Positions 23,277 through 43,573 are shown, counted from the first letter of the stretch. The stretch is DNA of 64,000 nt from Candidatus Zhuqueibacterota bacterium (GCA_036351795.1 JAZBPW010000125.1:27171-91170); one strand, 5' to 3'. Numbers and translations: made by a program. Notes: a model not told the origin generated them from the letters alone.

Positions 23277-23309
23277 CAAGAACACGATAATCAGCAAAAG
23301 GACTTGTGC

Positions 23310-24260: not shown

Positions 24261-24297
24261 TTAATTTTGGAGGGGCCTTACAGAAAAGGAGTGGGCC

Positions 24298-26350: not shown

Positions 26351-26357
26351 ATCCGAT

Positions 26358-27476
26358 ATGAAAACGCAAGGACTAAATACCGAGATCAAAGCCGGCGGCA
26401 AAAAGTTTCATGTTCAGACGAACTACCTTGAGCCCGTGGAAAAGATTATTTCGAGCATCTATGAAGATGGACAAATTCTGTTCAAAAAAGAACGGCATGT
26501 CGACGAAGATAATGTAGAAAAAGCGTTAGAGAATGGAATTAAAGAGCTGCATAAAGAGACAATTGATGATATTGAATTACTCTACTACATATCTGTAAAA
26601 GTAAGTTCCATTCGGCACGCACCATCCAATTTACGCTTAGGCAAGATGTTCTTGCACTACAATCTGATTCAGGATGGCATCGAAGAATTTAAAAATGCAG
26701 TCAATCTCGATCCGGATTTGGTCGATGCGTATAAATACCTCAGCATCTCATATCTGTCTCAGAAAAATTATGAACAGGCATTGGAAACAGTCAATGCTGC
26801 GCTGGAGAAAGAGGATGCCTACCCGGATCTCTATTGCGTGCTTGGGAGAATACAATCTGAGAGAAAAGAGTACAGTGATTCAATCGTTTCGCTTAACAAG
26901 GCGCTGGAACTCAATCCGGATTACGAAGAGGCTGGCATTTATCTGATATACACGCTTCTTAAAAGCGTTGCAGATGAATACGAAGATGAAAGTCTGCCAG
27001 GGCTGGAGAATCGAAAAGAGATCGCAATTTCACAGCTTCAGAGATCAGAAAAATTTATACGCTCGGACAGGTTGATAGAGATCTACGAAATTCTTGAAAA
27101 AGGTGACTTTAATAAAACGTGCAATGTACTTCTTTCTGTGATTGATGAGGATCTGAAAAAAGATATTGGGTATCTGGAAAATGAATTTTATTTGAGATTC
27201 ATGTTTGGTGGTAAGGGAAAAAATGATGAGTTTGTGAAAAAATACGTAGAAGATATTCAGAAGACACTTGCGCAAAATCCACAATATGCAGACTTGAGAA
27301 ACAATCTTGGTATTGCGTACCTCATCCAATGTAGAAATCTATTTTTAAAAGCCCTTGATGAATTTCGCGAGGCGCTCAATATCAACGAGAAATACAATAA
27401 AGCGGAGAGAAATTTGAAGTTGGCCGAGAATGATGGCAAAGGGTTTCTTATCCTGCTCAGAGCCCTTTTGAAATAA
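26358..27476 (+). CDS. Tetratricopeptide repeat protein with an uncharacterised N-terminal domain
   Basis: Repeated TPR units (AVNLDPDLVDAY, ALELNPDYEEA, NPQYADLRNNLGIAY); N-terminal GLNTEIKAGGKKFHVQT. Confidence 0.8.
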   Translation: MKTQGLNTEIKAGGKKFHVQTNYLEPVEKIISSIYEDGQILFKKERHVDEDNVEKALENGIKELHKETIDDIELLYYISVKVSSIRHAPSNLRLGKMFLHYNLIQDGIEEFKNAVNLDPDLVDAYKYLSISYLSQKNYEQALETVNAALEKEDAYPDLYCVLGRIQSERKEYSDSIVSLNKALELNPDYEEAGIYLIYTLLKSVADEYEDESLPGLENRKEIAISQLQRSEKFIRSDRLIEIYEILEKGDFNKTCNVLLSVIDEDLKKDIGYLENEFYLRFMFGGKGKNDEFVKKYVEDIQKTLAQNPQYADLRNNLGIAYLIQCRNLFLKALDEFREALNINEKYNKAERNLKLAENDGKGFLILLRALLK

Positions 27477-27698
27477 TTCACCATAGATTCAACTTACCAT
27501 TCAATTCATTTTCCCGCAACACATAATTGGATTTTTCGATGCACATTCAGGTTTTTGAATGAAAGTGCGCTTGCCTGAGTGATGCATGGACTAAAACATA
27601 TATAAAATAAAATTTTATAATATCATATGGTATGGTTTTTGCATAAAAAAGCCTGCGTCCTGAAACGTTTTAAACAGATAATAAAGGGAGCGATGAAG

Positions 27699-28202
27699 AT
27701 GTATCCAAATGAAACAAAAAGAACTGCTGAGACAAGAAAAGTACTGACAACATTTTTATTTATTTCACTTTTCGTCTGTATGATGGCAGGGCATGCTCAG
27801 GGAGCCGATACGGTGAATATCATTGCAAAAAATCCAGAAGTCCTGGCTAAGTCAATTTATACTATAGAATTTGATATTTCCAAAGAGATTCCACCGCAGG
27901 CCACTATCGAAATTACATTTCCCGCCGAATTTGATCTGTCAGGAGTATTGATCGGAAGTTCAACGACGATCAACGGCGGATTTAAACTCGATGTGAATGA
28001 AACCAGAATCGTTCTCAAAAGGTCTGGTCTCGGTAGAATAATTGGAGCAAATGAGAAGGTCGATGTAAAATTTGCGAATGTCACAAATCCGCCGGAATCT
28101 AAAACTGATTTCGAGCTGAAGATAGAAATCAAGAATGATGCTGGTGAATCGATCATTCAGCAGACGGATAAATTGAGTATCATTGCTCCGTCGGAAAAAT
28201 AA
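27699..28202 (+). CDS. Small secreted Ig-like protein, paralogue of the N-terminal domain of the downstream giant protein
   Basis: ORF track gives 27627; ATG 27699 lies 8 nt after GGGAG. Signal peptide ending AHAQG; shares SIYT, FDLS, NGGF and ANV.N motifs with the next gene. Confidence 0.75.
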   Translation: MYPNETKRTAETRKVLTTFLFISLFVCMMAGHAQGADTVNIIAKNPEVLAKSIYTIEFDISKEIPPQATIEITFPAEFDLSGVLIGSSTTINGGFKLDVNETRIVLKRSGLGRIIGANEKVDVKFANVTNPPESKTDFELKIEIKNDAGESIIQQTDKLSIIAPSEK

Positions 28203-28287
28203 GCTTAGAGATAGACATATAATAGAACCCATCGGCAGAATCGACTTGGCTTGACATCTTTGAATTGACAACGAGAGAAAGCACTAA

Positions 28288-31200
28288 ATGAGAAGGAAGC
28301 ACCTTTGTGTATTTTTTGCAGCACTGGCAATTCTCATTGGAAATGGGAGTTATGCAACTGCGCAATCTACTGGTTCATTGGTAAATTTATCTGCAAGCGC
28401 CCAGAATGATGGGGCGGGTGCAGAATCGATATATACATTTACTTTCACGACATCGAATAACGGGAATGGCATTGATATCGGTATTCCAGCGAATGGAAAG
28501 ATATTCTTTGAATTTGAAGCCGATTTCGATCTCAGTCAGGTCTCTATTGCGTATGTCGTATCGGGAATGAATGGTGGCTTCGCATCGATCGTCGATACGA
28601 GCGGTACCGGACTGGAGTTGTTTATTACCCGTGATGGAACCGGAACTGCTGTTTCGAGAAATGCCACGGTAAGCATACGTATTGCAAATGTGGTGAACGC
28701 AACTACAGTCGGTGGCTCTTACAGAATCTATGTGAAGACCATGACGAATGCGAACACTCATATCGATCAGGGTACGGTTTCAGGTTTTGATATCAATGCC
28801 GGCCCGATGGATTATATAAGGATCGAGGACCTGCCGGATGGCATCGGTGCTGAGTTTGGATCAGCAACGCTTTCGTCCGGACAGACCCGAAACATGTATG
28901 CGGTTGGTTATGATGCATACGGAAATTATGCCGGCAACATGAATGTGGATTGGAGTGTTGCTGGTGGGATTGGTACGGTCTCTCCAGCTGTCAATTCCAG
29001 CATCACGCTGTTTACGGCGACAATTACAGGGACGGGGAATGTCGTTGCGGATGATGGAAGCAGAAATGTTGACAATACCGGCGAAATCACTGTCAATCCA
29101 GGAACGCTGAGTTATGTGAAGATCGTCGAGGGAGTGGCTGGAGATGGCAGCGAACTCACAACAAAATCGCTCACAACGGACCAGTCGCTTCTCGTACATG
29201 CGGCAGGATATGATCTGTACGATAACTATATCAACGATGTCGCCGTTGACTGGTCTGTGAATGACAGTCTCGGTTCGATCGCACCCGCCACAGGACCACA
29301 GGCAGTGTTCGAACCGGATAAAACAGGTACGGGTCAAATACTTGCTGATCATGCGACGGCAACGGATGATCAGACGGGAGATATTACTGTCAACGCTGGT
29401 GCATTGAAGCGTATCCGCATCGTTGACGGAGCGTCCGGGGACGGTATCGAACTGGGAACAAAGAATCTCTCCACCGGAGATACGCTGACAGTGCATGCAG
29501 CGGGATATGATGCAGATGGAAATTACAGGGAAGATCCGCAGGTGAGCTGGACAGTTGTCAATGATATCGGCACGGTGACCCCTGCGGCCAATTCTGAGAT
29601 AACGAATTTCGTCGCGACACGCATTGGTTCGGGATTTATCAAGGCGACGCATCCCGATGCCGGTAGTGACCTGACAGATGAAATTACAGTAGGCAGTGGA
29701 CAGTTGCATCGGATCCTCATACAGAATAAGCCCGGTGGTATGGGCACGACTGTTCAGGATACTGTCGTATATTTGAATCAGACGACTCGTTTTTACGCGG
29801 CCGGGTATGACGAATATGGTAACTATATTCGGGATATAGATGCTACGTGGAAGCATATCGGGAATTTCAGCTTTCCTGACTCTCTTGTTGCTGATGAAAT
29901 ATCAATAGCACCACAGCAGCTGGGTTTGAGTGGCCGGTTTACCGCAGATAGCGCCGGACTTGTTCCGGATACGACCGGTCTGATACAGGTTGCGGATATC
30001 AGCTACATTCGGATCAGTGAATCAGCAGAGGGCGGCGGTCAAAAGTACGCAGGGACTGTCCTGTCTGCTGATGATTCTGTGACATTGTTCGCTGCGGCAT
30101 ACGATGTCAGCGATAATTTCATTGATACGGTGACAGTAAATTGGGTTGTCGAGAATATGGAGCCGTCGGAGGGAGTCGCGGGGTCCAGGTTTACTTTTTC
30201 GCCCACTGTTGCACATCTGAGCGGAAGAATTATCGCGGACCACGCTTATGCGAGAGATGATTCCACCGGATTGATAACGATAGTGCCGGGCGTTCCTTTC
30301 GGACATTTTCAGATGAATGTCGATTCGACAGAGCTTTCTGCCAATGGCAGCGATCAGACCGGTATTATGTCGGACACAATTTATGATTATGACGGCAATG
30401 TGATTCAGCAAAACAGCCAATTCACTGTTGTTGCCAAACCGTCGAATCTTGGTTTAATGGTGACACCCGCAGATGTAAATAGCACGATAGCGGGGCACCA
30501 AATCAATTCAGATGCGCAGGGGCGCATTTCCTTTACTGTGAGAGCGGGTACTCTGGGGGGCACGGCATATATATCAGTGAACAGCGTAACCGGAAGTGCA
30601 CACGGCGACACGACGATCTCTTTGTCAGGCATCCGTCTGATATCAGTGACAGCAGAAAAGGAACGGGTGACGCGTAATCAGAATGATGTTCAGGTTCAGA
30701 TGCTCGTTAGGAACACGAGTCCCGAACCGGTTGATTCTCTAGAGGCAGATCTTAAATTTAAAACGTCAACCGGAGAGGATCGTCGGTCGGATTATGAGGT
30801 GTTCACAGGTACATTGCCAATACTCAATGGCGGAGAGCAGAGGATCATTGATCTTTCTGTGAATGTGAAAAGCAACGCGTTACTGGATAGCATTTTTATC
30901 GACGGAATTATCCGGGGCGCAACACAATCAAAGACGGTTGTTCAGGATACATCCGCTGCACAAAAGGATAGCTGGATTGTACAGGATCGGCCTATCCTCA
31001 GGATACTTGGCGTCACTGCGCCGGAGCTTGTAGAACAGGGGACGGTAACAACCGTGCGGTTAAGAGTGAAAAATGAAGGTGAGGCAGAGGCAAGCATAAC
31101 AAAGGACAGCCTCATGTTTTTCACGGCTGATCCGTTGATCGATGTAACGGATGAATACAGCCAGATACCGGAACACAGTTATCCCTATGTTTTAGGCTCT

Positions 31201-34200
31201 GATGAGATTCGGGACCTGCGTTACACAGTGACTGTCGGAGCAAATGCCACGCGAGGCGATGTGATTCTGGATGGATTCATCTCTGGCGTCGACGCGAATT
31301 CCGGCGTTGCTGTTTTTGATGATGACGCTGATACCACGGATACCTGGGAAGTAAAACGAATCGGAGAGATTGATATCACTGACTTTGAGGCGCAGCAGGA
31401 TTATGTCATCTCCGGACAGATGACGCCCTGGACCATTAGAATGAAAGTCGAAAACAAGTTTGAAACTGTCAATATGACTCTGGATAGTGCAGCGCTTCAG
31501 TTCTATACCGGAACCCAGGATATTACATCGGAATTTGAAGTAGAAAATCCAACAAAGTTTCAGGAATACGGCAGCACTGAAATTCTATATGCGGATACAA
31601 CAGAAACGCTTGTTTTCAGTGTCAGGAGCACAACGAATCAAAGAATAGGAAATATACGAATCACGGGCTCTGTCTATTTAAGTGATATTGCCCAATCACA
31701 GCTGACGGATTTTTCGGAGACGCAAATCATTGTGAAAACGCCATCGACACTGCAATTTGGGGAAATAAGCGTGTCGCAGACGGAAGTCACTCAAGCACAG
31801 AATAATGACTGGATGTTTACGGCGGCGGTGACAAATATCGGACAGTCAAATATCATTGCCGATCTGTCGTCCGATTCTACATATCTGGTGTTTTCAGGAT
31901 CCGATGATTTCAAGGTGATAAAACCGTCCAAATTTATCCTGTCTCAAAGCAATGTGATTTCGAGCGGAATGACGGATACGCTGCGGTTCATTGTCGATTC
32001 TACCGGTACTGTTCCGGGGCGCAGTGACATCAAGATTCAGGTGCTGTACGCGGATACGTATGCTGCGCAGGATTCCTTCTACGCCATTGATGCAGAAGCC
32101 TATGTCGATGTTCAAACGCCGGCATCGTTGAAAATATTGGACATGGTGAACATTGGGCCGAATTCGCCCTTTGTAAATACAGGACAGGATTTTCAATTGC
32201 GTGTGGATCTTGCCAATGAGGGTGGTGATGGCGCGCATGACATTCAACTGATTGTCAATACAGATGGGCAATCCACAGTAGTGCCAGTTGAGAATATTTC
32301 TATCGATGGTGAAAGCGTTGATTCTATCTTTGTGGATGTGCACGCTGCCGGTGATTGGAGCTATGGGGAAGTATTCTCAGCCGCCATTTCCGGAGCAGTG
32401 GGAGATAACACCAATGAATTTGATGCTGAAATTATCAAAGCAGCCGATGATGACAGCGCACTTGCTATTTTGCAGCGACCGGCAGAGCTCAGTATTACGA
32501 AAGTTATTCCTGAGTTTGGGACAGTGGAAGCGCTGAGCAGAGACTGGAAGATTTCTGTAGCTGTGCGCCGTGACGGGGCTGAGTCTGTCCGGATAAAGGA
32601 ACCGTCAGCCAATGATCTTCGCTTCTTGATCAATAGCGAAGAACAGGACGATTATATCATTATACCCCCTGAAGGATTCAAAAACTCCGGTGACCTGGTG
32701 TTGTCCGGATGGGATGTTGCAGAGGATACGCTGGTGTACACAGTGGATAAAACCGGTCTGCTGGGTGGAGATGCTTTGATAGAGGCGAATCTTGAAGCGA
32801 CGTATTTGAACAATGACAGTATTGTTTTCGTTCAAGAATCAGACTCCGTGTCCGTGGAAACAACTGCCAATCTGTCTATTTTGCAGACAACACCTGTTTG
32901 TCCGCGTCTGGAAGACGGGGTTGGTATTATCAGTACCGAACAGAATTACAGTATCCGCGTAACCCTGCAGAATTCTGGCGAAGAGGCGGTAGATAATGTG
33001 TGGGTGAGCCTTTTGGGACGGGAGACGTACAGTCAGATGCTCGACTCAATATCGGCGAAAGACCAGGCTTCATTGAGTTTCTTTCTTAAGGCGCCGGATA
33101 TCGAAAAGCGCATAGACTATGTCGCTGTCATTGATTCGGGGATCTCGAGGCTCAGCGGACAGCCGGCTCTTATCGGGTCTTCATACGATTCTGAAGCTTC
33201 GGTAGAGATTCAAAACAAGGCGAGGCTCTCTGTACAGGTAAATCCGGAAGATTCTGTAATGACAGTTGGGGTCTTGTCGTCAATGCGATTTAAGGTTGAA
33301 AATCTGGGTACTGCGAAAACAGACAGCCTGGGAAAGGTGATCATCACCATTCCAGAAAATTATAAAGTCATGAATGGAACGATGCTGGATTCAGTAACCA
33401 CAACGATTGATTTCGTCACCGGAAGAGAAGAGACGCTTCGGGTGGTTCCTCCGGGCGTCACCAGTTTCGGAGACCAGTTCAGAATTACAATGAGCACAAC
33501 TCCGAAAGATATGAATACAAATCTTCCGGCATTCGTGGAGAACCATACGGGAACGATCACAGTAAGCACCGTTGCCTCTGATTTCGATTTGTATACGCGG
33601 ATCACCTGGCCGAATGGCGCGAAAGACAACACCGTCTCCACAGAGCAGCTGTTTGATGTGCGGGTAGATTTTGACGTCTCACCAAATATCAAGCGAATAG
33701 AGGCCGGGTTGGATCTGGCAGATGGCTATCAATTCAGTAGTGGTGTTGAATCAATTCAGGTTGCTGAAAATGATGCTGTCGTCTGGCGTGTCAAAGCGCC
33801 TGTTGAAGAGAATTTGTTACCTGTTAATATGATGGTCACCGCTGTCGGCTATACCGGAACGGTGCAATATGAGCTCAGAGACACTATTGGTGTTGTATCC
33901 CAGAAAAAAGCACAACTGACTTTGGGAAGCCTGGGTATCGTATCGCCGTCGCAGACAGATAGTGTGCTGTCGCTTAATCAGGATTTTACGATTAGTACAA
34001 CCGTTGTGAATGATGGATCGGCGCCTGTCGTGGGGACGGGCACGCTGAGGATAGATTTCGGTGCCACAGGGGTGACAACACTGGAGAACCTGTCGAAAAC
34101 TTTTATAACGGGCACTCCGGTTCTCTGGCACGCGACGGCCCCCGGGAATGTGACTTCAAGAGACGATATATCAATATCCATTGAAAGCGTTCCCTTTGAC

Positions 34201-35802
34201 GGCAATACAACGGATTTTGCATCAGGGATTGGAAACAAACGCTCCTTTAACGTGCGTACGATTGAAGGAGGATTCGTCGAAATTGACAGCATTAAGATCG
34301 TCGATCCAATAGGCGCTACGGATCGTGTCCTTTCAACAAATCAGATATTTACAGTAAGGGCATATCTTCACTGGAACAATTGTGATGCATTGCCCACGAT
34401 GAGTATAAAGCTACCGCCTGGATTCCTCTCAGATATTGAGAGTCAAAATCCTGCAGGAGCCGCAAATCAAGGGATTGTCAGCTGGGAAATTTCAGCACCC
34501 TCCGGTGTTGCGGCAAACCAGATGATCTGGACGGAGGCCAGAGCGAATGATATCAATAGTGGAGCTCTGATCATTGATTCTTCGGATAACATCTCTGTCA
34601 GCGTGGTACGACAGGCTGAGATATGGCTCAACGCGGAAATTATCGAGCCGGACGATGCACTGGACGGGGTGGTTTCGACAGGTCAGCATTTCACGATAAA
34701 AGCGAATATTTTGAAATCAGGGGATGCAAGTCTTGAAGATTTTTATACAGCCCGGCTGACGATGCCAGCCGGACTTGGTTATGTTACAACAGATGCGCTG
34801 GATCAGCGTAAATTATATGACCAGACGGTTTACTGGGAGATTACAGCACCATCAGCGGCCAAAGATGCAGATATTTTTGTTATAAAGCTCGTTGAGCCGC
34901 CCAATGACGAGAATACGAACCAGGGAATTCAAGGCGAAGCCCTTATAGAGGATACCCGGGCCATTCCCATTACTACCGAAGAGAAGAGCGTCACGATATC
35001 CGTGTTACCGAAAAAGGCGAATAATTCTGTTGCAAAGGGAGACAGCAGTATCCCCATGCTCTCGCTGGAGATTCTGATCTCGGGAGATGAAGAGTCCAGT
35101 CATGTCCTGTTCAGCGGCATGAAAATTAAGCTGAAGGATAAATATGGGACGGTGATAGTCAATCCGACACACGCGATATCGAGAATATCGATAAAAAACG
35201 CCACCTTTTCGGAAACGATTTCACTTGGTGAAATAGAGAAAATTCCGGAAACAGAGGCAATTGACATCGCCTTTACAAATAAGGACACATTGATACCGGG
35301 TATATCAAATAAAATCGAATTCATGGTCGATATAGCGCCGGATGCTTCTTTGACGGACTTTCGTCTGAGCATCGATTCATTGAGCTATTTCGATATGATG
35401 GATATAGGCTCGGGACAGCGGCCCAGACTGCAACTCACTGACGGTGAGTCGATCGCCTCCGGATTTTCGGTGATTGTGCCACAGGATTTTGAGCGAGCGT
35501 TTTGGAATTATCCAAATCCATTTGGTTCAGACGGCAGAGAATTAACGACAATTCAATACTTCCTTGACCAGGATAGCGATATTGAGATCAGAATTTATAC
35601 ATTATTGGGCGAGCTGGTATGGTCGCGTCAGTATAGCGCGGATGAACCTCAGGGAAAGAGGGGGCTGCACGATGGTGCTACAGCCATCACATGGAATGGC
35701 AGGAATGAAGGTGGCAACACTGTTTTAAATGGCGTATATATCGCCTATTTAAATACGAGCTACGGAAAAACAGTTACAACCAAGATTGCTGTACTTAAAT
35801 AA
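28288..35802 (+). CDS. Giant (2504 aa) secreted multi-Ig-like surface protein with a FlgD-Ig / T9SS-like C-terminal domain
   Basis: Signal peptide; tandem beta-rich modules; C-terminal WNYPNPF...IQYFL...IRIYTLLGELV...TWNGRNEGGNTVLNGVYIAYL...KIAVLK. Confidence 0.85.
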   Translation: MRRKHLCVFFAALAILIGNGSYATAQSTGSLVNLSASAQNDGAGAESIYTFTFTTSNNGNGIDIGIPANGKIFFEFEADFDLSQVSIAYVVSGMNGGFASIVDTSGTGLELFITRDGTGTAVSRNATVSIRIANVVNATTVGGSYRIYVKTMTNANTHIDQGTVSGFDINAGPMDYIRIEDLPDGIGAEFGSATLSSGQTRNMYAVGYDAYGNYAGNMNVDWSVAGGIGTVSPAVNSSITLFTATITGTGNVVADDGSRNVDNTGEITVNPGTLSYVKIVEGVAGDGSELTTKSLTTDQSLLVHAAGYDLYDNYINDVAVDWSVNDSLGSIAPATGPQAVFEPDKTGTGQILADHATATDDQTGDITVNAGALKRIRIVDGASGDGIELGTKNLSTGDTLTVHAAGYDADGNYREDPQVSWTVVNDIGTVTPAANSEITNFVATRIGSGFIKATHPDAGSDLTDEITVGSGQLHRILIQNKPGGMGTTVQDTVVYLNQTTRFYAAGYDEYGNYIRDIDATWKHIGNFSFPDSLVADEISIAPQQLGLSGRFTADSAGLVPDTTGLIQVADISYIRISESAEGGGQKYAGTVLSADDSVTLFAAAYDVSDNFIDTVTVNWVVENMEPSEGVAGSRFTFSPTVAHLSGRIIADHAYARDDSTGLITIVPGVPFGHFQMNVDSTELSANGSDQTGIMSDTIYDYDGNVIQQNSQFTVVAKPSNLGLMVTPADVNSTIAGHQINSDAQGRISFTVRAGTLGGTAYISVNSVTGSAHGDTTISLSGIRLISVTAEKERVTRNQNDVQVQMLVRNTSPEPVDSLEADLKFKTSTGEDRRSDYEVFTGTLPILNGGEQRIIDLSVNVKSNALLDSIFIDGIIRGATQSKTVVQDTSAAQKDSWIVQDRPILRILGVTAPELVEQGTVTTVRLRVKNEGEAEASITKDSLMFFTADPLIDVTDEYSQIPEHSYPYVLGSDEIRDLRYTVTVGANATRGDVILDGFISGVDANSGVAVFDDDADTTDTWEVKRIGEIDITDFEAQQDYVISGQMTPWTIRMKVENKFETVNMTLDSAALQFYTGTQDITSEFEVENPTKFQEYGSTEILYADTTETLVFSVRSTTNQRIGNIRITGSVYLSDIAQSQLTDFSETQIIVKTPSTLQFGEISVSQTEVTQAQNNDWMFTAAVTNIGQSNIIADLSSDSTYLVFSGSDDFKVIKPSKFILSQSNVISSGMTDTLRFIVDSTGTVPGRSDIKIQVLYADTYAAQDSFYAIDAEAYVDVQTPASLKILDMVNIGPNSPFVNTGQDFQLRVDLANEGGDGAHDIQLIVNTDGQSTVVPVENISIDGESVDSIFVDVHAAGDWSYGEVFSAAISGAVGDNTNEFDAEIIKAADDDSALAILQRPAELSITKVIPEFGTVEALSRDWKISVAVRRDGAESVRIKEPSANDLRFLINSEEQDDYIIIPPEGFKNSGDLVLSGWDVAEDTLVYTVDKTGLLGGDALIEANLEATYLNNDSIVFVQESDSVSVETTANLSILQTTPVCPRLEDGVGIISTEQNYSIRVTLQNSGEEAVDNVWVSLLGRETYSQMLDSISAKDQASLSFFLKAPDIEKRIDYVAVIDSGISRLSGQPALIGSSYDSEASVEIQNKARLSVQVNPEDSVMTVGVLSSMRFKVENLGTAKTDSLGKVIITIPENYKVMNGTMLDSVTTTIDFVTGREETLRVVPPGVTSFGDQFRITMSTTPKDMNTNLPAFVENHTGTITVSTVASDFDLYTRITWPNGAKDNTVSTEQLFDVRVDFDVSPNIKRIEAGLDLADGYQFSSGVESIQVAENDAVVWRVKAPVEENLLPVNMMVTAVGYTGTVQYELRDTIGVVSQKKAQLTLGSLGIVSPSQTDSVLSLNQDFTISTTVVNDGSAPVVGTGTLRIDFGATGVTTLENLSKTFITGTPVLWHATAPGNVTSRDDISISIESVPFDGNTTDFASGIGNKRSFNVRTIEGGFVEIDSIKIVDPIGATDRVLSTNQIFTVRAYLHWNNCDALPTMSIKLPPGFLSDIESQNPAGAANQGIVSWEISAPSGVAANQMIWTEARANDINSGALIIDSSDNISVSVVRQAEIWLNAEIIEPDDALDGVVSTGQHFTIKANILKSGDASLEDFYTARLTMPAGLGYVTTDALDQRKLYDQTVYWEITAPSAAKDADIFVIKLVEPPNDENTNQGIQGEALIEDTRAIPITTEEKSVTISVLPKKANNSVAKGDSSIPMLSLEILISGDEESSHVLFSGMKIKLKDKYGTVIVNPTHAISRISIKNATFSETISLGEIEKIPETEAIDIAFTNKDTLIPGISNKIEFMVDIAPDASLTDFRLSIDSLSYFDMMDIGSGQRPRLQLTDGESIASGFSVIVPQDFERAFWNYPNPFGSDGRELTTIQYFLDQDSDIEIRIYTLLGELVWSRQYSADEPQGKRGLHDGATAITWNGRNEGGNTVLNGVYIAYLNTSYGKTVTTKIAVLK
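28807..30291 (+). repeat. Five tandem ~99-aa Ig-like repeats in the giant protein
   Basis: Each unit shows I.I...(G.G)...A.(G/A)YD..(G/D)N(Y/F)...W...TG.I.V; 1485 nt = 5 x 99 codons. Confidence 0.85.
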
Positions 35803-35815
35803 TAAAGGCCGGCGT

Positions 35816-37726
35816 ATGAAAAGACTAATTATATTGATTCTGTTGATGGGGGCATTGGTTTCGAATATCCATGCGGGTGGTGAAGCGGGAACGCTTCAGA
35901 TATTCAGTCGGGGAGGAGTCGGAGCCAGAGCCATGGCACTGGGTAATGCCTACGTGGCAATGCCTTTTGATGCAACGGCGATTTACTGGAATCCGGCAGG
36001 CATGGAATATGTTCAGCATAAATCAGTGAGCCTGTTCTATACGAATCTGTTGGAGTCTTCTCCATATAATTTCATTGCCTATGTCCATCCGACCGTTAAC
36101 ATCGGGACGTTTGGATTGGGCGCCATTCGCGTTGGATCCGGAGATATCAAGAGAACTGATTCGCAAAATGTTGACGAAGGCACTTTTTCGTATAACGAGA
36201 GTCAATTCTTATTCTCCTATGCGAAACGCCTACCGGCACACCTCGCTGCGGGTATCAATCTGAAGCTCCACTATTTTTATATGGATGGTTTCTCCGACAC
36301 CGGTGTCGGCGCGGATATCGGTCTATTGTACAGACCTTCATTTTCCAGTGCTTTGTTGCGCAATATATCATTCGGAGTGAATCTGCACAATATCCTGCAG
36401 CCTCAGCTGAAGCCGCTTGAATCAACGGATGTTCATCCGTACATCGTCAAATTTGGCCTGGCCAAGCCGTTGCTTTTTGGCGATGGTGGTAACAAAATGT
36501 CTCTTTTCATGGATCTGGAGCAAGGTGGGGGCAACAGTCCGTTTATGTTTCATTTGGGCAGTGAATACGTTTTCCAGGAGCGGGCCATGCTGCGGGCAGG
36601 TATCAACAATGGATATATTGCATTTGGCGCCGGAGTCAGCTATGGCATGTACCAACTGGACTATTCATACGGGAAGATGGCGCAGCATGAACTGAACGCG
36701 AGTCATCGTATATCACTGACATTTGACTTTGGAATGTCCCGATCGGATATGATGCGTATTGCCGAGGAGAAAAAGCTTCGGATCATCGAAGAACAGGTTG
36801 CCAAGAAGATCGAATGGGATCGTAATGAGAAAATCGCCCGCGCCATGGAAAACGGAAAGAGATACATGCAGGATGAGGATTATGTGCGCGCCCAAAGAGA
36901 GTTTAATATCGTGATCGGTTTTGAAAACGAGATTCCGGAAGCGTTGGAAATCAAGGAAGCGAAGGAACTGTACGCGCTCGCCACGGAAAAATACGAGGAC
37001 AAGACAAAGAAGGCTATTGCGGAGATACAGGCGAAAGATGCGCTGGACAGGAAGAAGAAGGAAGACCAGATATATATCAATGATCATTTCAAACGCGGAC
37101 TTGCCTTTTATGAGAACGAAGAGTATGAACGGGCAATTGGTGAATGGAATCGAATTCTCGATCGTGATCCCGATAACGAGTTGGCCAAAGAACATATCAA
37201 AAAGGCGCAGGTCGATTATCAGGCAAAGGTATATACGCTGATCAATAGAGCTGACGCATTCGGTAAGCAGGGTAAATATGTCGAAGCGATCAATATTCTG
37301 AACCAGGCGATCGGTTTGAATCCGGATGATCAGACCATCAAACAGGCGATTACGAGAAAGCGGTCTGCATATGAAAACAAGCTCAGTTTCCACGACCTCT
37401 ATGAACAGGGTCAGAATTATCAGCTACGAAAAGAGTATAAGAAAGCGATGGAAGCGTACGAACGGGCCCTGGCAATAGAACCAGATAATACGTTGGCTAA
37501 AAAGAGATACGAAGAAGTGAAGGCGCGTGCATTTGCACGAAGAGAACCCATGACGGAAGAGGTCAGATCAAAGTTTCTTCAAAGTCTTCGTTTAATTAAT
37601 CAGGGTAACTATAACGATGCATTGAAGATATTGGAAGAGATTCAGAAAATTCAGCCATATAACAAAGACATTCTTGATGGAATTGACACGGCCAGGGAAT
37701 ATCTGGAGAGACAAAACAGACAGTAG
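35816..37726 (+). CDS. PorV/PorQ-family outer-membrane beta-barrel fused to a C-terminal TPR region
   Basis: ATG 35816 gives a clean signal peptide; GVGARAMALGNAYVAMPFDATAIYWNPAG, GADIGLLY, last strand HRISLTFDF, then coiled coil and multiple TPRs. Confidence 0.82.
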   Translation: MKRLIILILLMGALVSNIHAGGEAGTLQIFSRGGVGARAMALGNAYVAMPFDATAIYWNPAGMEYVQHKSVSLFYTNLLESSPYNFIAYVHPTVNIGTFGLGAIRVGSGDIKRTDSQNVDEGTFSYNESQFLFSYAKRLPAHLAAGINLKLHYFYMDGFSDTGVGADIGLLYRPSFSSALLRNISFGVNLHNILQPQLKPLESTDVHPYIVKFGLAKPLLFGDGGNKMSLFMDLEQGGGNSPFMFHLGSEYVFQERAMLRAGINNGYIAFGAGVSYGMYQLDYSYGKMAQHELNASHRISLTFDFGMSRSDMMRIAEEKKLRIIEEQVAKKIEWDRNEKIARAMENGKRYMQDEDYVRAQREFNIVIGFENEIPEALEIKEAKELYALATEKYEDKTKKAIAEIQAKDALDRKKKEDQIYINDHFKRGLAFYENEEYERAIGEWNRILDRDPDNELAKEHIKKAQVDYQAKVYTLINRADAFGKQGKYVEAINILNQAIGLNPDDQTIKQAITRKRSAYENKLSFHDLYEQGQNYQLRKEYKKAMEAYERALAIEPDNTLAKKRYEEVKARAFARREPMTEEVRSKFLQSLRLINQGNYNDALKILEEIQKIQPYNKDILDGIDTAREYLERQNRQ

Positions 37727-37752
37727 AATATCATTAGGATGCGAGGACCAGA

Positions 37753-40700
37753 GTGTTAAAATCTGTAATCAAAGATGAAATAAAAGTCCCGGGGCATATC
37801 GATTATCTAGGTGAATTGCGAAATTTTGTCACCAAGACGGGTAAAAAATATAATTTTTCAGACAGTATTGTGAATGCGTTCAAACTTGCCATTGATGAAG
37901 CCGCGACTAACATCATCAAGCATGCGTATCGGGACATCGAAGGTGTAATCACGATGCGAATACTGGTCAAGAAAAGAAGCATGACAGTGATTCTGATTGA
38001 TCAGGGAAAATTTTTCGATCCGGCCAGAGTTCAGGCGCCCGATCTTCAGCGTTATGTTGATATCGGTAAAAAGGGAGGATTGGGCATATTTATTATGCGC
38101 AAGCTCATTGATGAGATCGATTACCGGCATACGGAAGAAGGAAATGAACTGCGGCTGACCAAATACCGGGATGGCGATTTCAGAAAAATGACGGATGATG
38201 ATGAGCTTCCCTCCGCATCCGCGCTTTCACTGAGTCTTAAAACGAGATATTCGCTCTTTGCCGCCGGTATACTGACGATCCTGATGAGTATTGGCTATAT
38301 CTATTTTTACTTCAGCCATGGACAGCAGACGCTAAACGAAGTGATCTCTGCGGCAAAGACAAATCTGGAGATGATTGCCAGAACAGTCGTTGCGCCCGGA
38401 GACACGACTCTGAATACAGTCTTTATCAATACGACGATACATGAAGCAATTGACCTGGATGAGCATGAAGAGGTCTACAGGATAATCATTACAGACAATA
38501 AAGATCTGACACTATTCAGCAGTGATGATGATATTTTTGGCACCTATTATCAGATACCTGAAGACCACAGGAAAGTGGAAAAATCTGTGTTTTTCTTCGA
38601 AGACAAGTCTTCCAATACCAAACTCTATGATGTTGTAAGCCCCATTCGTGCCGATAATCGGCAGCAACTCGGAGAAATTCATCTCCAGATCCACAATGAT
38701 TTTGTGAAGGATGAAATTGGTGCTTTGAGAGCAAAGGATCTTCGTCTGGCCATGTTGATTCTGGCTATCGGATACTTTGGGATCGCTTTATTGATCTATA
38801 TTGTGATGAACCCTTTTCGCAAGCTCTCCGACTGGGTGAAGCAGCTTGGGCACGGTGAGGTACAGGATGAGATCGATTTCGACACTGGCAATGAGCTGGG
38901 CGAGATAGCAAAAGCATTCAGCGAGATTACGGATAAATTCAGACGATCTCAGGAAAATCTGGCAGAGCAGGAGAGGCTCCAGAAGGAGATGCAGCTGGCT
39001 CAGGATATTCAGCAGACACTGCTTCCAAAACATATCCCTGAACTTGAAGGCTACATGATTTCTTCGCACTATGAAGCAGCCATGGAGGTCGGAGGAGACT
39101 ACTACGACTTTGTTGACGTCGACAAAGACTCGATCGGTATCGTGGTCGCTGATGTGTCGGGGAAGGGTGTTCCTGGTTCACTCATAATGACGATGATCCG
39201 TACCGCGCTCAGAACAGAGGCCCGGGGTGTGAAGTCTGCATCAGAAGTTCTGGCACGATTGAATGACTTTGTTGTCAAGGACATGAAGAAGGGCATGTTC
39301 GTCACGATCTTCTATGTGATCATAGATTCGAAGAGAAGGCGAGTGAATTACGCGAGCGCCGGACATAATCCCATGATCCTTTATCGGCAAAGCACTGAGA
39401 AAACCTATTATCTCAATCCGAAGGGTTTTCCCGTAGGGATTTCGTTGCCGGATCAGGAGTTGTTCAAAAAATCCATAGAATCGGACACCATTCAGCTCGC
39501 TGAAGATGATATTCTGCTCATCTATACCGATGGTATAACAGAAGCCATGAATTCACACAGAGAGTTGTTCGGTGAGGAGCGTCTGCTGGAGACGATTAGG
39601 AGGAACGCGGAATTACAGGCACAGCCGTTCATAGAAAAAGTGAAGGACGAGATCCATTCCTTTACTGAGGGATTTGAACAGAACGACGATATCACCATTG
39701 TGGCGATCAAAGAGAAGAGTTCTCCGGAAAAAATTGAATTATCACGCGCGCAAAATGCGCACCAGATGATCAATTCTACGGGTATCAGCATCAAGGATGC
39801 CTGTGAGGAGGCGGGAATTACCACATATGCCTATTACAATAAATACAAAAAAATCTTTGAAGAGGAAGGGATCGAAGCCTATTCTATTGATGATACAATC
39901 TCTGTGGAAGCGAAACATTTGAGCATCGAAGAAAAAACAAAGATCTATGACATCATCAAGACACATCCGGAGTATGGCGCAAAACGAATCAGTGAAGAAC
40001 TGCAATCGGAACGCTATGGAAGCACAGTGATCAACGAGAGTCGCATCTATGAAGAACTCGTCCGAAGCCGCCTGAATACACGCCAGCTAAGAGAGGCATA
40101 TATCGCAAGGGCCGGCAAGAAGAAGCGAATGAAACCGCCTGGAACACCAATGCTGACACTGGATGGACGCATTATACTCGATCGCGACTATTACGAACAT
40201 TATGAGGAAGAGAGACCGGAGAAGAGAGCGCCGGAAAAATTGAAGGAAAAGAAAAAGATAGATGCCGAGAAGACGGCAGCAGAGGATTCCGGCCAGGTAG
40301 CAGCAGAGGAGATATCGGGAGACCCGAACGAGAATTTCGACGAGGACTTTTACATTGAGAGCCTGATGACGGTTCCTTTGGAAAATCTCCTCGATAAGAG
40401 CAACAAGAAAAAGTCTGCTCCGAAAGTTGAAAAGACAGAAGATGAAGAAGTTGAAGAGGTGGATGAGAAAGCTGGGGGTGACGAAGAGATGGTTGAACCG
40501 GAACGCCAGGCAGGGGAAGAAGTGACTGCGGACGATACGACTGAAACTGAGTCGTCTGGCGAGGTTCCGGCGGATGATAATTTGAGTAATGAATATTCTG
40601 AAATAGATGAGGGGGATGAAGAATTCATTGATGCAATCGAAGAGAAGATCATCGCGGAGCTCGATGAAAAGGCCGGGCAGGATCTGTTTGATGATGATAT

Positions 40701-41706
40701 AGAGATGGTTGATCATGAGCAGAAGAAGAAAGAACCGGATGACATTGAAGAGCCGGACACACAGGGACTTGAAGAAGATGTGATTGACGATGAAACCGAC
40801 CTTGATCAGGAGTTCAGCTTCAAAGATGTCTGGGAAGACGATGATGAAGGTGTTGAAGAACTCAGTGACAGCGAAGATGTTGCAAACCTTGATAGCATCG
40901 ACGAAGATGTCGAGATGAATCTTGGTAATGCTGAAGATTCACAGGATATCATGGATGAAATTCTCAATGAGGATGAGATCACATTTGAAAACCTGGCGGA
41001 AGAGGACAATTTCGACCGGTCTTCATACGATAAAGATGACAATAATGGTTCGTATGAGGAAAAAGGTAAAAAGCGGGGGAAAAAGTCAAAGAAAAAGAAA
41101 AAAAGTGATGCCGGGGATGACGATCAGAAATCTGGTAATGAGGAAAAAGCCGAAGATGACGGGTTTACTTTTGGCACATTACTCGATGAAATTGAGCATG
41201 ATCTGTCGTATATCGATGACGATATCGGTTTTGATGAGGACGACCTGGTTGATTCAAATAAAATGGTTATCTCGGGCGAAAATATAGATATACAGGACAA
41301 TATCCAGTCGATGGATAAGAGAGAACTTGATCAGGCATTACAGAACGACAATTTATTATCCGGCCTGAAGCATTATAAAAATGATGATTTTGAAAAGGCG
41401 ATCGATGAGTTCAAAAAGGTTCTGGAACTCTATCCGGACTTCAAAGAGGTTCACACTATCATGGGAAACGCCTATTTTAAGAATGACATGAGCGATGAAG
41501 CATTGAAGGAATACATGCGCGTAATCGAAATTGATCCCTATGACGTAGATGCTTATGAAAATCTCGGTGTGATCTATGCCAATCAGGGAGAATATACAAA
41601 GGCGATTGAAGAATGGAAAAAACTTCTGGAAATTGATCCCGAGCGAGGTGATATAAAAGATAATTTGGAGCGCGCGCAGAATATTATTGACGGAGACAAA
41701 GGCTAA
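37753..41706 (+). CDS. Membrane-bound hybrid: RsbW-type Ser kinase + sensor + HAMP + SpoIIE/PP2C phosphatase + HTH + acidic tract + TPR
   Basis: LAIDEAATNIIKHAY, IDQG..FDP, GGLGIFIMRKL; two TM segments; HAMP; VGGDYYD, ADVSGKG, SAGH, YTDGITEA, DDIT; D/E-rich tract; C-terminal TPRs. GTG start. Confidence 0.88.
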   Translation: MLKSVIKDEIKVPGHIDYLGELRNFVTKTGKKYNFSDSIVNAFKLAIDEAATNIIKHAYRDIEGVITMRILVKKRSMTVILIDQGKFFDPARVQAPDLQRYVDIGKKGGLGIFIMRKLIDEIDYRHTEEGNELRLTKYRDGDFRKMTDDDELPSASALSLSLKTRYSLFAAGILTILMSIGYIYFYFSHGQQTLNEVISAAKTNLEMIARTVVAPGDTTLNTVFINTTIHEAIDLDEHEEVYRIIITDNKDLTLFSSDDDIFGTYYQIPEDHRKVEKSVFFFEDKSSNTKLYDVVSPIRADNRQQLGEIHLQIHNDFVKDEIGALRAKDLRLAMLILAIGYFGIALLIYIVMNPFRKLSDWVKQLGHGEVQDEIDFDTGNELGEIAKAFSEITDKFRRSQENLAEQERLQKEMQLAQDIQQTLLPKHIPELEGYMISSHYEAAMEVGGDYYDFVDVDKDSIGIVVADVSGKGVPGSLIMTMIRTALRTEARGVKSASEVLARLNDFVVKDMKKGMFVTIFYVIIDSKRRRVNYASAGHNPMILYRQSTEKTYYLNPKGFPVGISLPDQELFKKSIESDTIQLAEDDILLIYTDGITEAMNSHRELFGEERLLETIRRNAELQAQPFIEKVKDEIHSFTEGFEQNDDITIVAIKEKSSPEKIELSRAQNAHQMINSTGISIKDACEEAGITTYAYYNKYKKIFEEEGIEAYSIDDTISVEAKHLSIEEKTKIYDIIKTHPEYGAKRISEELQSERYGSTVINESRIYEELVRSRLNTRQLREAYIARAGKKKRMKPPGTPMLTLDGRIILDRDYYEHYEEERPEKRAPEKLKEKKKIDAEKTAAEDSGQVAAEEISGDPNENFDEDFYIESLMTVPLENLLDKSNKKKSAPKVEKTEDEEVEEVDEKAGGDEEMVEPERQAGEEVTADDTTETESSGEVPADDNLSNEYSEIDEGDEEFIDAIEEKIIAELDEKAGQDLFDDDIEMVDHEQKKKEPDDIEEPDTQGLEEDVIDDETDLDQEFSFKDVWEDDDEGVEELSDSEDVANLDSIDEDVEMNLGNAEDSQDIMDEILNEDEITFENLAEEDNFDRSSYDKDDNNGSYEEKGKKRGKKSKKKKKSDAGDDDQKSGNEEKAEDDGFTFGTLLDEIEHDLSYIDDDIGFDEDDLVDSNKMVISGENIDIQDNIQSMDKRELDQALQNDNLLSGLKHYKNDDFEKAIDEFKKVLELYPDFKEVHTIMGNAYFKNDMSDEALKEYMRVIEIDPYDVDAYENLGVIYANQGEYTKAIEEWKKLLEIDPERGDIKDNLERAQNIIDGDKG

Positions 41707-41713
41707 ATTTTTA

Positions 41714-41742
41714 TTGACTTTTATCAATTTTTCTATTATATT
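41714..41742 (+). promoter_or_regulatory. Internal sigma70 promoter upstream of the STAS gene
   Basis: TTGACT (41714-41719)-N17-TATATT (41737-41742). Confidence 0.6.
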
Positions 41743-41791
41743 TTTCTAATTGAGAGTTTTTTCTCACCCCAAAGATATCAGGAGTTAAAAA

Positions 41792-42466
41792 ATGGAAGGA
41801 ATCCAACTTTCTGTAAAGCAGACAGGAGCGAACAATGATATATCAATCATAAAAGTTGGTGGATATATAGATACAACGACATCTGCAGAGCTTGAGCACT
41901 CATTGGATACATTATTAAAATCGAACAATTACAATATTATTATTGACCTGGAAAACGTTGACTATATCAGCAGCGCCGGTTGGGGAATTTTCATAAGCGA
42001 ATTGAAGGGGATTCGCGACAGGGGAGGCGACCTAAAACTCGTTAAAATGATGCCGGATGTATACGAGGTCTTTGAGCTGCTCGAATTTCATTATATTCTT
42101 AAGGCATTTGATTCCATAGAAGATGCGATAGCTGACTTTGACAAGCGAAAAGTATTTGATGATTCAAGAGCATATGCGGACTCAGATGTGCCCATGCAAG
42201 GGACTGAGATACAGGAAAAGGTGGGGAGAGACTCTTCGGACCAGCCTCATGAATTACATGACAAGGCGATGTCCGTGGATGACAAAATCAGAAAGCTGGT
42301 CATGGAAAATCCGGAAATAAGCAGTATAACCATGTTCCAGAGGTTGAAGTCAGCCAGGTTCGGAAATCAGAAAATCGGGTACTTTCAATTGTTGAAAGTA
42401 TTGAAGAAGATGAATTTGAATTCCAAAAAGAAGAGAGTGGAATTTTTCAAAAAGCAGAACGCCTGA
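41792..42466 (+). CDS. STAS (anti-sigma-factor antagonist) protein with a C-terminal HTH-like extension
   Basis: GGYIDTTTS, IIIDLENVDYISSAGWG (phospho-acceptor Ser motif), GGDLKL, VYEVFELL; ~100 extra C-terminal residues. Confidence 0.9.
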   Translation: MEGIQLSVKQTGANNDISIIKVGGYIDTTTSAELEHSLDTLLKSNNYNIIIDLENVDYISSAGWGIFISELKGIRDRGGDLKLVKMMPDVYEVFELLEFHYILKAFDSIEDAIADFDKRKVFDDSRAYADSDVPMQGTEIQEKVGRDSSDQPHELHDKAMSVDDKIRKLVMENPEISSITMFQRLKSARFGNQKIGYFQLLKVLKKMNLNSKKKRVEFFKKQNA

Positions 42467-42496
42467 TAGAGGTATTTACATATACGTTATTCGAAA

Positions 42497-42528
42497 GGAG
42501 TCGGTTGTTTCAGCTGACTCCTTTTTTT
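42497..42528 (+). terminator. Rho-independent terminator ending the giant-protein operon
   Basis: GGAGTCGGTTG-TTT-CAGCTGACTCC (11-bp stem with two G-U pairs) followed by T7. Confidence 0.85.
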
Positions 42529-42583
42529 AATTCATTTACAAAATAAAATCCAAATAATGTGCAATTTGAGAAAAAATTGAATC

Positions 42584-43573
42584 ATGTTTATAGACTATGC
42601 AAAGATCACAGTGCGGGCAGGAAACGGGGGGAATGGATGCTTATCGTTCAGACGGGAAAAGTTTGTACCAAAAGGCGGGCCAGATGGCGGCGATGGGGGT
42701 GACGGCGGAAATGTCGTTTGCAAGGCTTCCCGGCATTTGCAAACGCTGTTAGATTTTCGATACCGCAGAGAATATAAGGCGAAAAATGGCCGCCATGGAC
42801 AGGGTGCCAATAAATTTGGCAAGCGTGGAGAGGATCTGGTTATCGAACTCCCCATGGGAACGGTTATAAAGGATGATATTACCGGGGAGCTGATCGGAGA
42901 CCTGGTGGACGATCAACAAACGATTGTGGTGGCAAGGGGAGGTAAAGGCGGGCGAGGCAATGCCAGGTTCGCCACATCGACAAATCAGGCGCCCCGGGAA
43001 TTCGAAGTTGGGTCCAAGGGAGAGTTTCGAACAATCCAGCTCGAACTGAAACTATTGGCAGATGTTGGTCTTGTTGGATTACCGAATGCAGGTAAATCAA
43101 CAATGCTGTCCGTTATTTCGGCGGCCCGCCCGAAAATCGCCGATTATCCTTTTACAACGCTTCAACCTAACCTGGGAATCGTAAAATATCGAGACCACAC
43201 CAGCTTTGTCGTTGCGGATATCCCGGGTCTGATCGAGGGCGCGCATCAAGGCAAGGGGCTCGGCATTCAGTTTATCCGGCATATAGAGCGAACACGTATC
43301 ATCGCGTATCTGATCGACTCGCAATCTGATGATATTATGGGTGATCATAAAATATTAAGAGAAGAGCTGGGAAAATACAATGAGAATTTATTGAAAAAAG
43401 CCTCTTGTGTTTTTCTGACAAAAATAGATACAATTTCCAGTGAGGAGCTGGGTAAAATGACGTCGAAAATACCAGGTTCTATAAAATGGGTGGCGATCTC
43501 ATCGGTGACCGGAGAAGGGATTGATGCTGCGGTATCTGTTTTGTGGGAACTATTGGAAGAGAGCGGGGATTGA
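42584..43573 (+). CDS. obgE: GTPase ObgE
   Basis: FRREKFVPKGGPDGGDGGDGG, GLPNAGKST, ADYPFTT, ADIPGLIEGA. Confidence 0.98.
   Translation: MFIDYAKITVRAGNGGNGCLSFRREKFVPKGGPDGGDGGDGGNVVCKASRHLQTLLDFRYRREYKAKNGRHGQGANKFGKRGEDLVIELPMGTVIKDDITGELIGDLVDDQQTIVVARGGKGGRGNARFATSTNQAPREFEVGSKGEFRTIQLELKLLADVGLVGLPNAGKSTMLSVISAARPKIADYPFTTLQPNLGIVKYRDHTSFVVADIPGLIEGAHQGKGLGIQFIRHIERTRIIAYLIDSQSDDIMGDHKILREELGKYNENLLKKASCVFLTKIDTISSEELGKMTSKIPGSIKWVAISSVTGEGIDAAVSVLWELLEESGD

Follow-up and report, generated by a model that had tools for sequence, protein, structure and literature searches.

What does a bacterial phosphorylation switch control when its genes lie directly behind that of a giant surface protein, and from where does it receive its signal? 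The question is raised by a cluster of five genes (g1 to g5) in a 64-kb stretch of DNA (referred to below as the window; contig C125:27171-91170) from a metagenome-assembled genome (MAG) of KSB1 (Zhuqueibacterota), a candidate division that is an uncultured phylum of the FCB group and comprises a single class (PMC11683472). The MAG is 3.15 Mb in size and 75%-complete, the whole contig is 92 kb long, and the named relatives are KSB1 and Calditrichota. The five genes lie in the same orientation (+) at 27693-42466 and end at a strong terminator. They encode, in order, a small secreted protein (g1), a giant secreted repeat protein (g2), an outer-membrane barrel of the PorV/PorQ family with a coiled-coil and tetratricopeptide repeat (TPR) extension (g3), an inner-membrane protein that carries both a kinase and a phosphatase domain (g4), and a STAS protein with a tail resembling a helix-turn-helix (HTH) domain (g5). 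A preliminary description of this DNA had proposed that the surface protein signals via the barrel to the sensor in g4, and that the switch has an output other than a sigma factor. The explanation preferred here, which is held with moderate confidence, is that the cluster is a surface-protein operon driven by sigma-54, with a built-in switch similar to SypE/SypA of Vibrio fischeri, and that the switch has the STAS-HTH protein, and not a sigma factor, as its output.

The order of the genes has been kept throughout the class. In 20-kb neighbourhoods from ten families, the order g00-g1-g2-g3-g4-g5 (where g00 is a gene for a TPR protein upstream of g1) is found in 20 of 20 class loci, and it holds although g2 is down to 23-45% identity, with orthologues of 2360-3899 aa. 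The cassette is single-copy and near-universal in KSB1/Zhuqueibacterota (40/40 genomes), with a full-length g4 orthologue in all 40 class genomes. A wider search, using profile hidden Markov models built from the class orthologues, revealed the block of giant, barrel, g4 and STAS genes also in loci labelled as Calditrichota, Latescibacterota, Eisenbacteria, FCPU426, Zixibacteria and Krumholzibacteria. One locus (L091; L and C numbers designate individual loci and contigs) has an unfused form, in which the genes for the giant and the barrel-TPR protein are followed by separate genes for an sCache-HAMP-PP2C protein, a STAS protein and RsbW. Co-conservation of the signalling pair (g4 and g5) with the surface genes, which had been set as a test beforehand, therefore extends over 20 of 20 class loci and at least six further lineages.

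This conservation bears on the explanation that the cargo-barrel pair and the signalling pair are two independent units, which are neighbours by synteny without functional coupling. The housekeeping genes on either side (rsmD and coaD upstream; obg, which starts at 42584 just beyond the operon terminator, and dprA downstream) likewise keep part of their synteny within the class, and the spacer between g4 and g5 has a sigma-70-like consensus match at 41714-41742 (TTGACT-17-TATATT, 10/12; pattern match only), which might be a basal promoter belonging to g5 itself. In addition, an orphan paralogue of g4 exists in a Calditrichaceae MAG (L060:2407-6168; kinase-HAMP-PP2C-TPR, 1253 aa), where it is located among metabolic genes. 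However, the adjacency of the two pairs survives phylum-level distances, at which the flanks differ and g2 is barely alignable, and the linkage is also present in the unfused locus. Within the class, obg follows the cluster in only some loci: synteny breaks on the obg side and leaves the cluster intact. The gaps between the five genes (85, 13, 26 and 85 nt, in order), and the promoter and terminator, one of each, are as expected of a single operon; the five co-oriented, tightly spaced genes closed by a strong terminator are all present, as first described. Mere synteny is regarded as a very unlikely explanation.

The promoter is located in the spacer between g00 and g1. Alignment of these spacers reveals one conserved 16-mer (TGGTATGGTTTTTGCA in the window), in which GG and GC lie ten bases apart. 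The -24/-12 consensus of sigma-54 is TGGCAC-N5-TTGCW, and the pattern TGGYAYN5TTGCW was used for searching. The 16-mer is the sole match to this pattern in the 64-kb window (0.23 expected), and the pattern occurs once per 20-kb locus, in the same position and on the same strand, in 16 of the 20 class loci. The remaining four have one-base variants at the same place (L041 and L047, and L140 and L141, which stand for L038 and L046), and the sequence flanking the element is not conserved between families. Beyond the class, a position matrix derived from these sites detected TGGCATGCCTCTTGCG roughly 100 nt ahead of the gene for the giant in Eisenbacteria (L066), with a score beyond the 99th percentile of background, and GGGCATGGGACTTGCT ahead of the corresponding gene in Latescibacterota (L139), beyond the 95th. 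The gene for sigma-54, rpoN, is present in 41 of 41 genomes, and at least 28 PF00158 sigma-54 activator genes are encoded in the cluster's own genome. Genome-wide, 17 of the 26 matches to the strict motif fall in gaps between long open reading frames (ORFs), though long ORFs cover 88% of the match-bearing contigs. The operon g1-g5 is thus predicted to be driven by a conserved sigma-54 promoter. The 16-mer might also be read as a Bacteroidetes-type -7 motif (TAnnTTTG), but this was rejected, since it is the GG and GC doublets that do not vary. The preliminary description had seen no sigma factor in connection with the operon; this stands for linked genes of the sigma-70 type, but the conserved sigma-54 promoter had been missed. 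Sigma-54 would here be an alternative sigma factor that provides the transcription input, not the target of the switch.

The conserved element also defines the start of g1. Since the element occupies the 16 bases at 27628-27643, the true start of g1 is 27693 or 27699; a ribosome-binding site (AAAGGGAG) precedes the ATG at 27693, and the start coordinate given previously (27699) fits. The ATG at 27627, listed by an ORF finder, was rejected as it overlaps the promoter. No shared activator-binding site (UAS) was recognized by eye upstream of the promoter, the flanks not being conserved across families. In the Latescibacterota locus L139, there are four to five tandem units of about 70 nt (each including GATGTGGCAGAGCGGTTCCTACAGCCCGTTGATGCTTCTCCTG) at 9250-9600, about 250-600 nt upstream of the sigma-54-like element, which might be an array of activator-binding sites. 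In four loci of one family (L031, L032, L034 and L035), the leader between promoter and g1 is about 180-200 nt long and has a conserved stretch, in which GAAAATCACCCA and, further on, GAAAATAA(T/A)CCA occur. The window's own leader is shorter and has no Rfam family match, and an Rfam scan of 26000-43000 found nothing relevant.

Upstream of the promoter, g00 is probably a sixth member of the cluster that is transcribed separately, because it accompanies the cluster even where the gene order changes. It adjoins the cluster in the class loci; elsewhere it lies right after the STAS gene (L068, L076, L079), after a g4-STAS fusion (L063, L064, L069), before the giant gene in Calditrichia (L132), or about 4 kb downstream (L070, L072, L073, L082). 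A sequence search of its product against the PDB gave generic TPR matches only.

The switch itself is formed by g4 and g5. In g4, a HATPase_c_2 domain (residues 16-137; PF13581, 86.3 bits, cut-off 27.4) is followed by two transmembrane (TM) segments with a loop of about 145 aa between them, a HAMP domain (347-389), a SpoIIE/PP2C domain (458-653; PF07228, 177.9 bits), an IS481-like HTH region (672-792), an acidic tract of about 350 residues and TPRs (1200-1300). The kinase scores 68 (NF003144) and 60 bits with the RsbW equivalog models, below their cut-offs of 145-155; therefore, g4 is a member of the family and not an equivalog of RsbW. Sequence matches of g4 in the PDB are RsbW (6m36, E 7e-14), RssB, Rv1364c (3ke6) and SiaA. 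Among 18 orthologues, the residues E49, N53, H57, D83, G85 and G108-G111 of the kinase are invariant, as are D449, D452, D467, D593, D645 and D646 of the phosphatase. Thus, the membrane protein recognized in the preliminary description, with an RsbW-type kinase and a PP2C phosphatase around a periplasmic sensor and a HAMP domain, has been borne out in its domains, its TM segments and its catalytic residues. The closest paralogue of the g4 kinase in the genome is a stand-alone protein of 161 aa (50% identity; contig C47, L003:1417-3391), the gene for which adjoins that for a CHAT-domain protein of 445 aa that has a TM segment at the C-terminus.

The STAS domain of g5 scores 65.9 bits with TIGR00377 (cut-off 53.45) and has an intact DYISSAG site at residues 57-63, as had been noted, with S60 and S61 invariant in 20 orthologues. 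The AlphaFold model of g5 (pLDDT 88) has the fold of RsbV and SpoIIAA according to Foldseek (TM 0.84-0.91). In three Latescibacterota-like loci (L063, L064 and L069), STAS domains are fused to the C-terminus of g4. The fusion supports the STAS protein as substrate of g4; together with the invariance of Ser60 and of the catalytic residues, it argues that the substrate had been predicted correctly.

Beyond the STAS domain, the tail of g5 comprises 70 helical residues, and it is homologous to the second HTH subdomain of g4 (hhalign probability 96%, E 1.5e-9), so the claim that both signalling proteins carry a related HTH is upheld. The region behind the g4 phosphatase is modelled as two three-helix subdomains (pLDDT 84), for which the best Foldseek matches, weak ones, are to DNA-binding HTH domains, namely the paired domain of Pax proteins, which is bipartite, and the RED subdomain of Sleeping Beauty transposase. 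In the PDB, a sequence search with this region gave no significant match. In the L064 orthologue, the first subdomain is assigned to HTH_28/HTH_29 by Pfam, and it is on this assignment, on the IS481 match in NCBIfam and on the predicted helices that the provisional label of HTH is based.

Does such a switch nevertheless end at a sigma factor? The classical form of partner switching would be that the RsbW-like domain of g4 holds a sigma-70-type factor of about 290-300 aa in trans, that unphosphorylated g5 frees it, and that the HTH-like domains are accessory. The similarity of the kinase to RsbW (by NF003144 and 6m36, above) is in keeping with this, and of the 12 sigma-70-family genes in the genome, all of which are off this contig, four are full-length non-ECF (extracytoplasmic function) genes of the appropriate size, on contigs C141, C176, C114 and C102. 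Furthermore, three g5 orthologues (L068, L081 and L091) consist of a plain STAS protein, with no tail. On the other side, the 92-kb contig is devoid of sigma-70-family genes over its whole length, which agrees with the earlier observation that the operon and window have none, and none is linked to the cassette in any of about 50 loci examined. SigB/F/G equivalogs were found in none of 41 genomes, in which unclassified sigma factors of about 260-300 aa are present. One of the four candidates already has an RsbW-like gene of its own: on C141 (C141:254-1849; L007:218-1849), the gene for a 300-aa sigma-70-type factor, which has regions 1.2, 2, 3 and 4, is immediately preceded by that for a 156-aa RsbW-like HATPase_c_2 protein. 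The genome therefore has a canonical anti-sigma/sigma unit apart from g4 and g5. That kinase and phosphatase are combined in one membrane protein also speaks for the STAS protein being the output, as it is for SypE/SypA. The holding of a sigma factor in trans is considered distinctly unlikely, and it belongs, with mere synteny, to the less likely of the rival explanations. An output other than a sigma factor is suggested by the absence of sigma-70 genes from the contig and of SigB/F/G equivalogs from the 41 genomes, and by the conserved HTH-homologous domain on the STAS protein.

What, then, is the switch coupled to at the cell surface? The single domain of g1 (about 135 aa) is similar to the N-terminal domain of the giant (31% identity, BLASTP E 7e-12), so that g1, for which orthologues are found in most loci and which has no Pfam or NCBIfam family match, is by sequence a stand-alone copy of that domain. 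In the giant, this domain is followed by five tandem repeats of about 100 aa (residues 169-668), which became visible by self-BLAST only after g2 had been fragmented, and then by divergent modules of about 120 aa with CARDB matches; the first 700 residues have no Pfam family match. At the C-terminus, a type IX secretion system (T9SS) type-A sorting domain (CTD) is recognized by TIGR04183 with 21.2 bits in the protein scan and 26 bits in a six-frame genome search (cut-off 23), and the Pfam matches to Por_Secre_tail, CHU_C and FlgD_ig are all below cut-off. The giant had been described as an immunoglobulin-like (Ig) chain of 2504 aa with a CTD: its length and signal peptide stand, the Ig part is indicated only by matches of the CARDB and FlgD_ig types, and the CTD is marginal. 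The genome does encode SprA (712 bits) and has 102 T9SS CTD matches above cut-off.

Residues 44-315 of g3 match the PorV/PorQ family NF033709 (141.8 bits, cut-off 90; 142.6 bits in the genome search), with TPR matches after the barrel, so that a PorV-like barrel with a TPR tail was correctly described. The protein fails the PorV and PorQ equivalog models NF033710 (60 bits, cut-off 250) and NF033711 (83.6 bits, cut-off 220), and the PorV2 equivalog model too. The coiled-coil/TPR extension is presumably periplasmic. The barrel had been called dedicated to the giant; such pairs are common here: the genome has at least 11 PorV-family paralogues above cut-off, several sharing contigs with CTD genes. 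A barrel beside a cargo gene is therefore usual in this genome, and what is unusual at this locus is not that adjacency but the TPR tail of g3 and the presence of the signalling pair. For a 3.15-Mb, 75%-complete MAG, the genome has a very heavy regulatory and secretory load, which includes many SpoIIE phosphatases beside the CTD proteins, PorV-family genes and sigma-54 activators counted above.

The position of the barrel gene invites the idea of an outside-in relay, in which the CTD-held giant would signal through the periplasmic coiled-coil/TPR arm of the barrel to the loop of g4 and so flip the phosphorylation of the STAS protein, the input being a load on the surface protein, its loss, or a contact that it makes. 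A full-length g3 orthologue lies directly upstream of g4 in about 25 of the 29 loci that carry a g4-type fusion; this arrangement spans several phyla, and the barrel-TPR and sensor genes also adjoin in the unfused L091. A TPR-rich protein is encoded immediately before the HAMP-PP2C gene in L086, L088 and L089. The topology would permit contact, as the periplasm is where the TPR arm and the g4 loop would both lie, and there is a precedent in PorA-PorXY-SigP, where a CTD protein interacting with PorV affects an inner-membrane sensor kinase (PMC7712824). However, the loop is the least conserved part of g4 among the 18 orthologues, and its relatives point to a different kind of input. In the window it has only a weak match, to dCache_1 (E 0.044), and weak Cache matches occur in 7 of the 18 class orthologues; sCache_3_2 (cut-off 28.4) scores 36.4 bits in L091 and a borderline 27.9 bits in L064. 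The loop is probably a diverged single-Cache domain, to judge from these profile matches. Cache-type domains usually bind small ligands. In addition, the orphan paralogue of g4 has no neighbouring barrel, and PorV-like barrels beside CTD genes are common in the genome without signalling genes. The flow of information from surface protein through barrel TPRs to sensor, as put forward in the preliminary description, is thus not borne out: the periplasmic domain is of Cache type in relatives, and a g4 paralogue does without barrel and STAS protein. The relay is held to be fairly unlikely. Doubtful, too, is a more far-reaching proposal, namely an ancient trans-envelope device of the FCB group in which the barrel holds a T9SS fibre, the TPR arm touches the Cache-like domain, and the STAS-HTH protein acts directly on DNA, all dependent on a sigma-54 activator.

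For the preferred explanation, that of a sigma-54-driven surface-protein operon with a SypE/SypA-like switch, the sequence of events would be as follows. An AAA+ enhancer-binding protein encoded elsewhere would switch the sigma-54 operon on. The giant would then leave the cell via the T9SS, and its CTD would be received by g3 as the barrel dedicated to it. With g4 in the inner membrane and both of its catalytic domains in the cytoplasm, the periplasmic Cache-like domain, via HAMP, would shift the balance between the kinase and the phosphatase that act on Ser60 of g5. Whether g5 is phosphorylated or not would be the output, by way of the HTH-like tail, which may bind DNA or dock on a partner. 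What g5 targets is probably the surface protein, at the level of its expression, its export or its assembly.

Several observations weigh against this explanation. A matrix scan detected no -24/-12 element at L132 of Calditrichia, at three Zixibacteria-like loci (L070, L072 and L073) or at L135 of KSB1, and no enhancer-binding protein gene lies on the cluster's own contig. We infer both a single operon and its transcription start from the sequence. The CTD score of g2 sits at the threshold of the family (TIGR04183). The tail of g5 is absent in three loci (L068, L081 and L091), the orphan g4 paralogue has no barrel, giant or STAS neighbours, and the four sigma-70-type factors of about 290-300 aa could be targets in trans. 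Because the structural matches of the g4 HTH model are weak (best E 0.16, none below 0.001), DNA binding by the HTH-like domain is a prediction and unproven.

Table 1. Positions of the cluster and its parts in the window
Feature	Position	Strand	Description
g00	26358-27476	+	372-aa cytoplasmic TPR protein, without signal peptide; Pfam TPR matches
Sigma-54-type promoter	27628-27643	+	TGGTATGGTTTTTGCA; GG-N10-GC, -24/-12; motif search
g1	27693-28202	+	Small secreted protein: signal peptide and one ~135-aa domain
g2	28288-35802	+	2504-aa secreted repeat protein, signal peptide
g2, g1-like N-domain	28375-28782
g2, five repeats	28792-30291
g2, CARDB-like modules	30820-34917
g2, type-A CTD	35509-35799
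g3	35816-37726	+	PorV/PorQ-family outer-membrane barrel with C-terminal coiled-coil/TPR extension
g3, barrel	35915-36730
g3, coiled-coil/TPR extension	36773-37723		~330 aa
g4	37753-41706	+	1317-aa inner-membrane kinase/phosphatase; Pfam and NCBIfam matches
g4, RsbW-like kinase	37798-38163
g4, TM1	38248-38313
g4, periplasmic Cache-like loop	38314-38745
g4, TM2	38746-38808
g4, HAMP	38791-38919
g4, PP2C	39124-39711
g4, bipartite HTH	39724-40122
g4, acidic tract	40240-41322
g4, TPR	41350-41652
g5	41792-42466	+	STAS protein, disordered linker, helical HTH-like tail
g5, STAS	41831-42127		Residues 14-112
g5, phospho-acceptor Ser60	41969-41971
g5, HTH-like tail	42245-42463
Intrinsic terminator	42493-42525	+	15-bp stem, 6 GC pairs, 3-nt loop, then T run (TTTTTTTAATT)

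Upstream of rsmD and coaD, the window has a PilM-like gene (23304-24260) between two ORFs of about 300-330 aa without a family match (22377-25281).

The cassette joins a T9SS cargo and a PorV-type barrel, a partner-switching phospho-switch and sigma-54 control, which have not been seen together in model organisms, and beyond KSB1/Zhuqueibacterota it is present in at least six further lineages of the FCB group, likewise poorly known. If the STAS-HTH protein is the output, this would be partner switching that ends in a DNA- or protein-binding domain of its own, which bears on the targets of non-canonical STAS proteins such as SypA. Signalling from the barrel to the sensor, if it occurs, would amount to a novel mode of cell-surface sensing. 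Experiments, and a search for the activator, can take the sigma-54 promoter as a concrete starting point. In full-text literature searches, no description of this cassette was found; the earlier statement that the combination is unlike described systems is to that extent supported, and is to be qualified by two precedents, SypE/SypA and PorA-PorV-PorXY.

Like g4, SypE of V. fischeri has an N-terminal RsbW-like or histidine protein kinase (HPK)-like serine kinase of about 140 aa and a C-terminal PP2C domain in one chain (PMC3610818, PMC10120452, PMC8256260), and the conserved Asn of the kinase is N53 in g4 and N52 in SypE (PMC3610818). Both domains act on a STAS protein of the same locus, which for g4 and g5 is predicted from adjacency and architecture; the output of SypA is not a known sigma factor, as is also predicted for g5, and in both cases the locus builds a cell-surface product. 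SypE has a cytoplasmic receiver (REC) domain, whereas g4 has no REC match and is built as a membrane receptor (TM, Cache-like, TM, HAMP), to which a bipartite HTH, an acidic tract and TPRs are added. The HTH-like tail of g5 has no counterpart in SypA, and the product of the syp locus is a polysaccharide, in contrast to the giant T9SS protein and PorV-like barrel here. The syp locus is sigma-54- and SypG-dependent.

The RsbU-RsbV-RsbW and SpoIIE-SpoIIAA-SpoIIAB systems have the same three domain families as g4 and g5, with the phospho-serine at the same place in the STAS protein. The three classical genes are present in L091, and the comparison includes a chlamydial RsbU with a periplasmic sensor (PMC11619594). 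The cassette differs from these systems in three respects: it has no linked sigma factor, its kinase and phosphatase form one protein built around a membrane sensor, and an additional domain is present on its STAS protein. A multidomain fusion for partner switching is also known in Rv1364c of Mycobacterium tuberculosis (PDB 3ke6), and L064 likewise joins kinase, phosphatase and STAS domain. Rv1364c has another domain order, however, is cytoplasmic with a PAS sensor, and lacks both the HTH and the envelope genes. Its target of regulation is SigF.

At the cell surface, the comparison is with PorA-PorV-PorXY-SigP of Porphyromonas gingivalis, in which a CTD surface protein interacts with PorV and influences a sensor of the cytoplasmic membrane, and through it gene expression (PMC7712824). 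There, the sensor is a two-component histidine kinase, the output is an ECF sigma factor, PorA is small, and the genes do not form one operon. The PorV of P. gingivalis is a general shuttle without the TPR tail of g3. Relative to the PorV/PorQ barrels of the T9SS in general, g3 passes the family model and adjoins a CTD cargo gene, but differs in its extension of about 330 aa and in failing the equivalog models. In the HenR/STAS module of Anabaena (PMC13555669), what a PP2C and STAS switch controls is the formation of an envelope layer and not a sigma factor; this cytoplasmic module lacks both a fused kinase and an HTH tail, and it targets a glycosyltransferase. Thus, all parts of the cassette are from known families and the switch resembles a known one; what is new is the combination, the dual enzyme built as a membrane receptor, the STAS-HTH protein, and the control by sigma-54.

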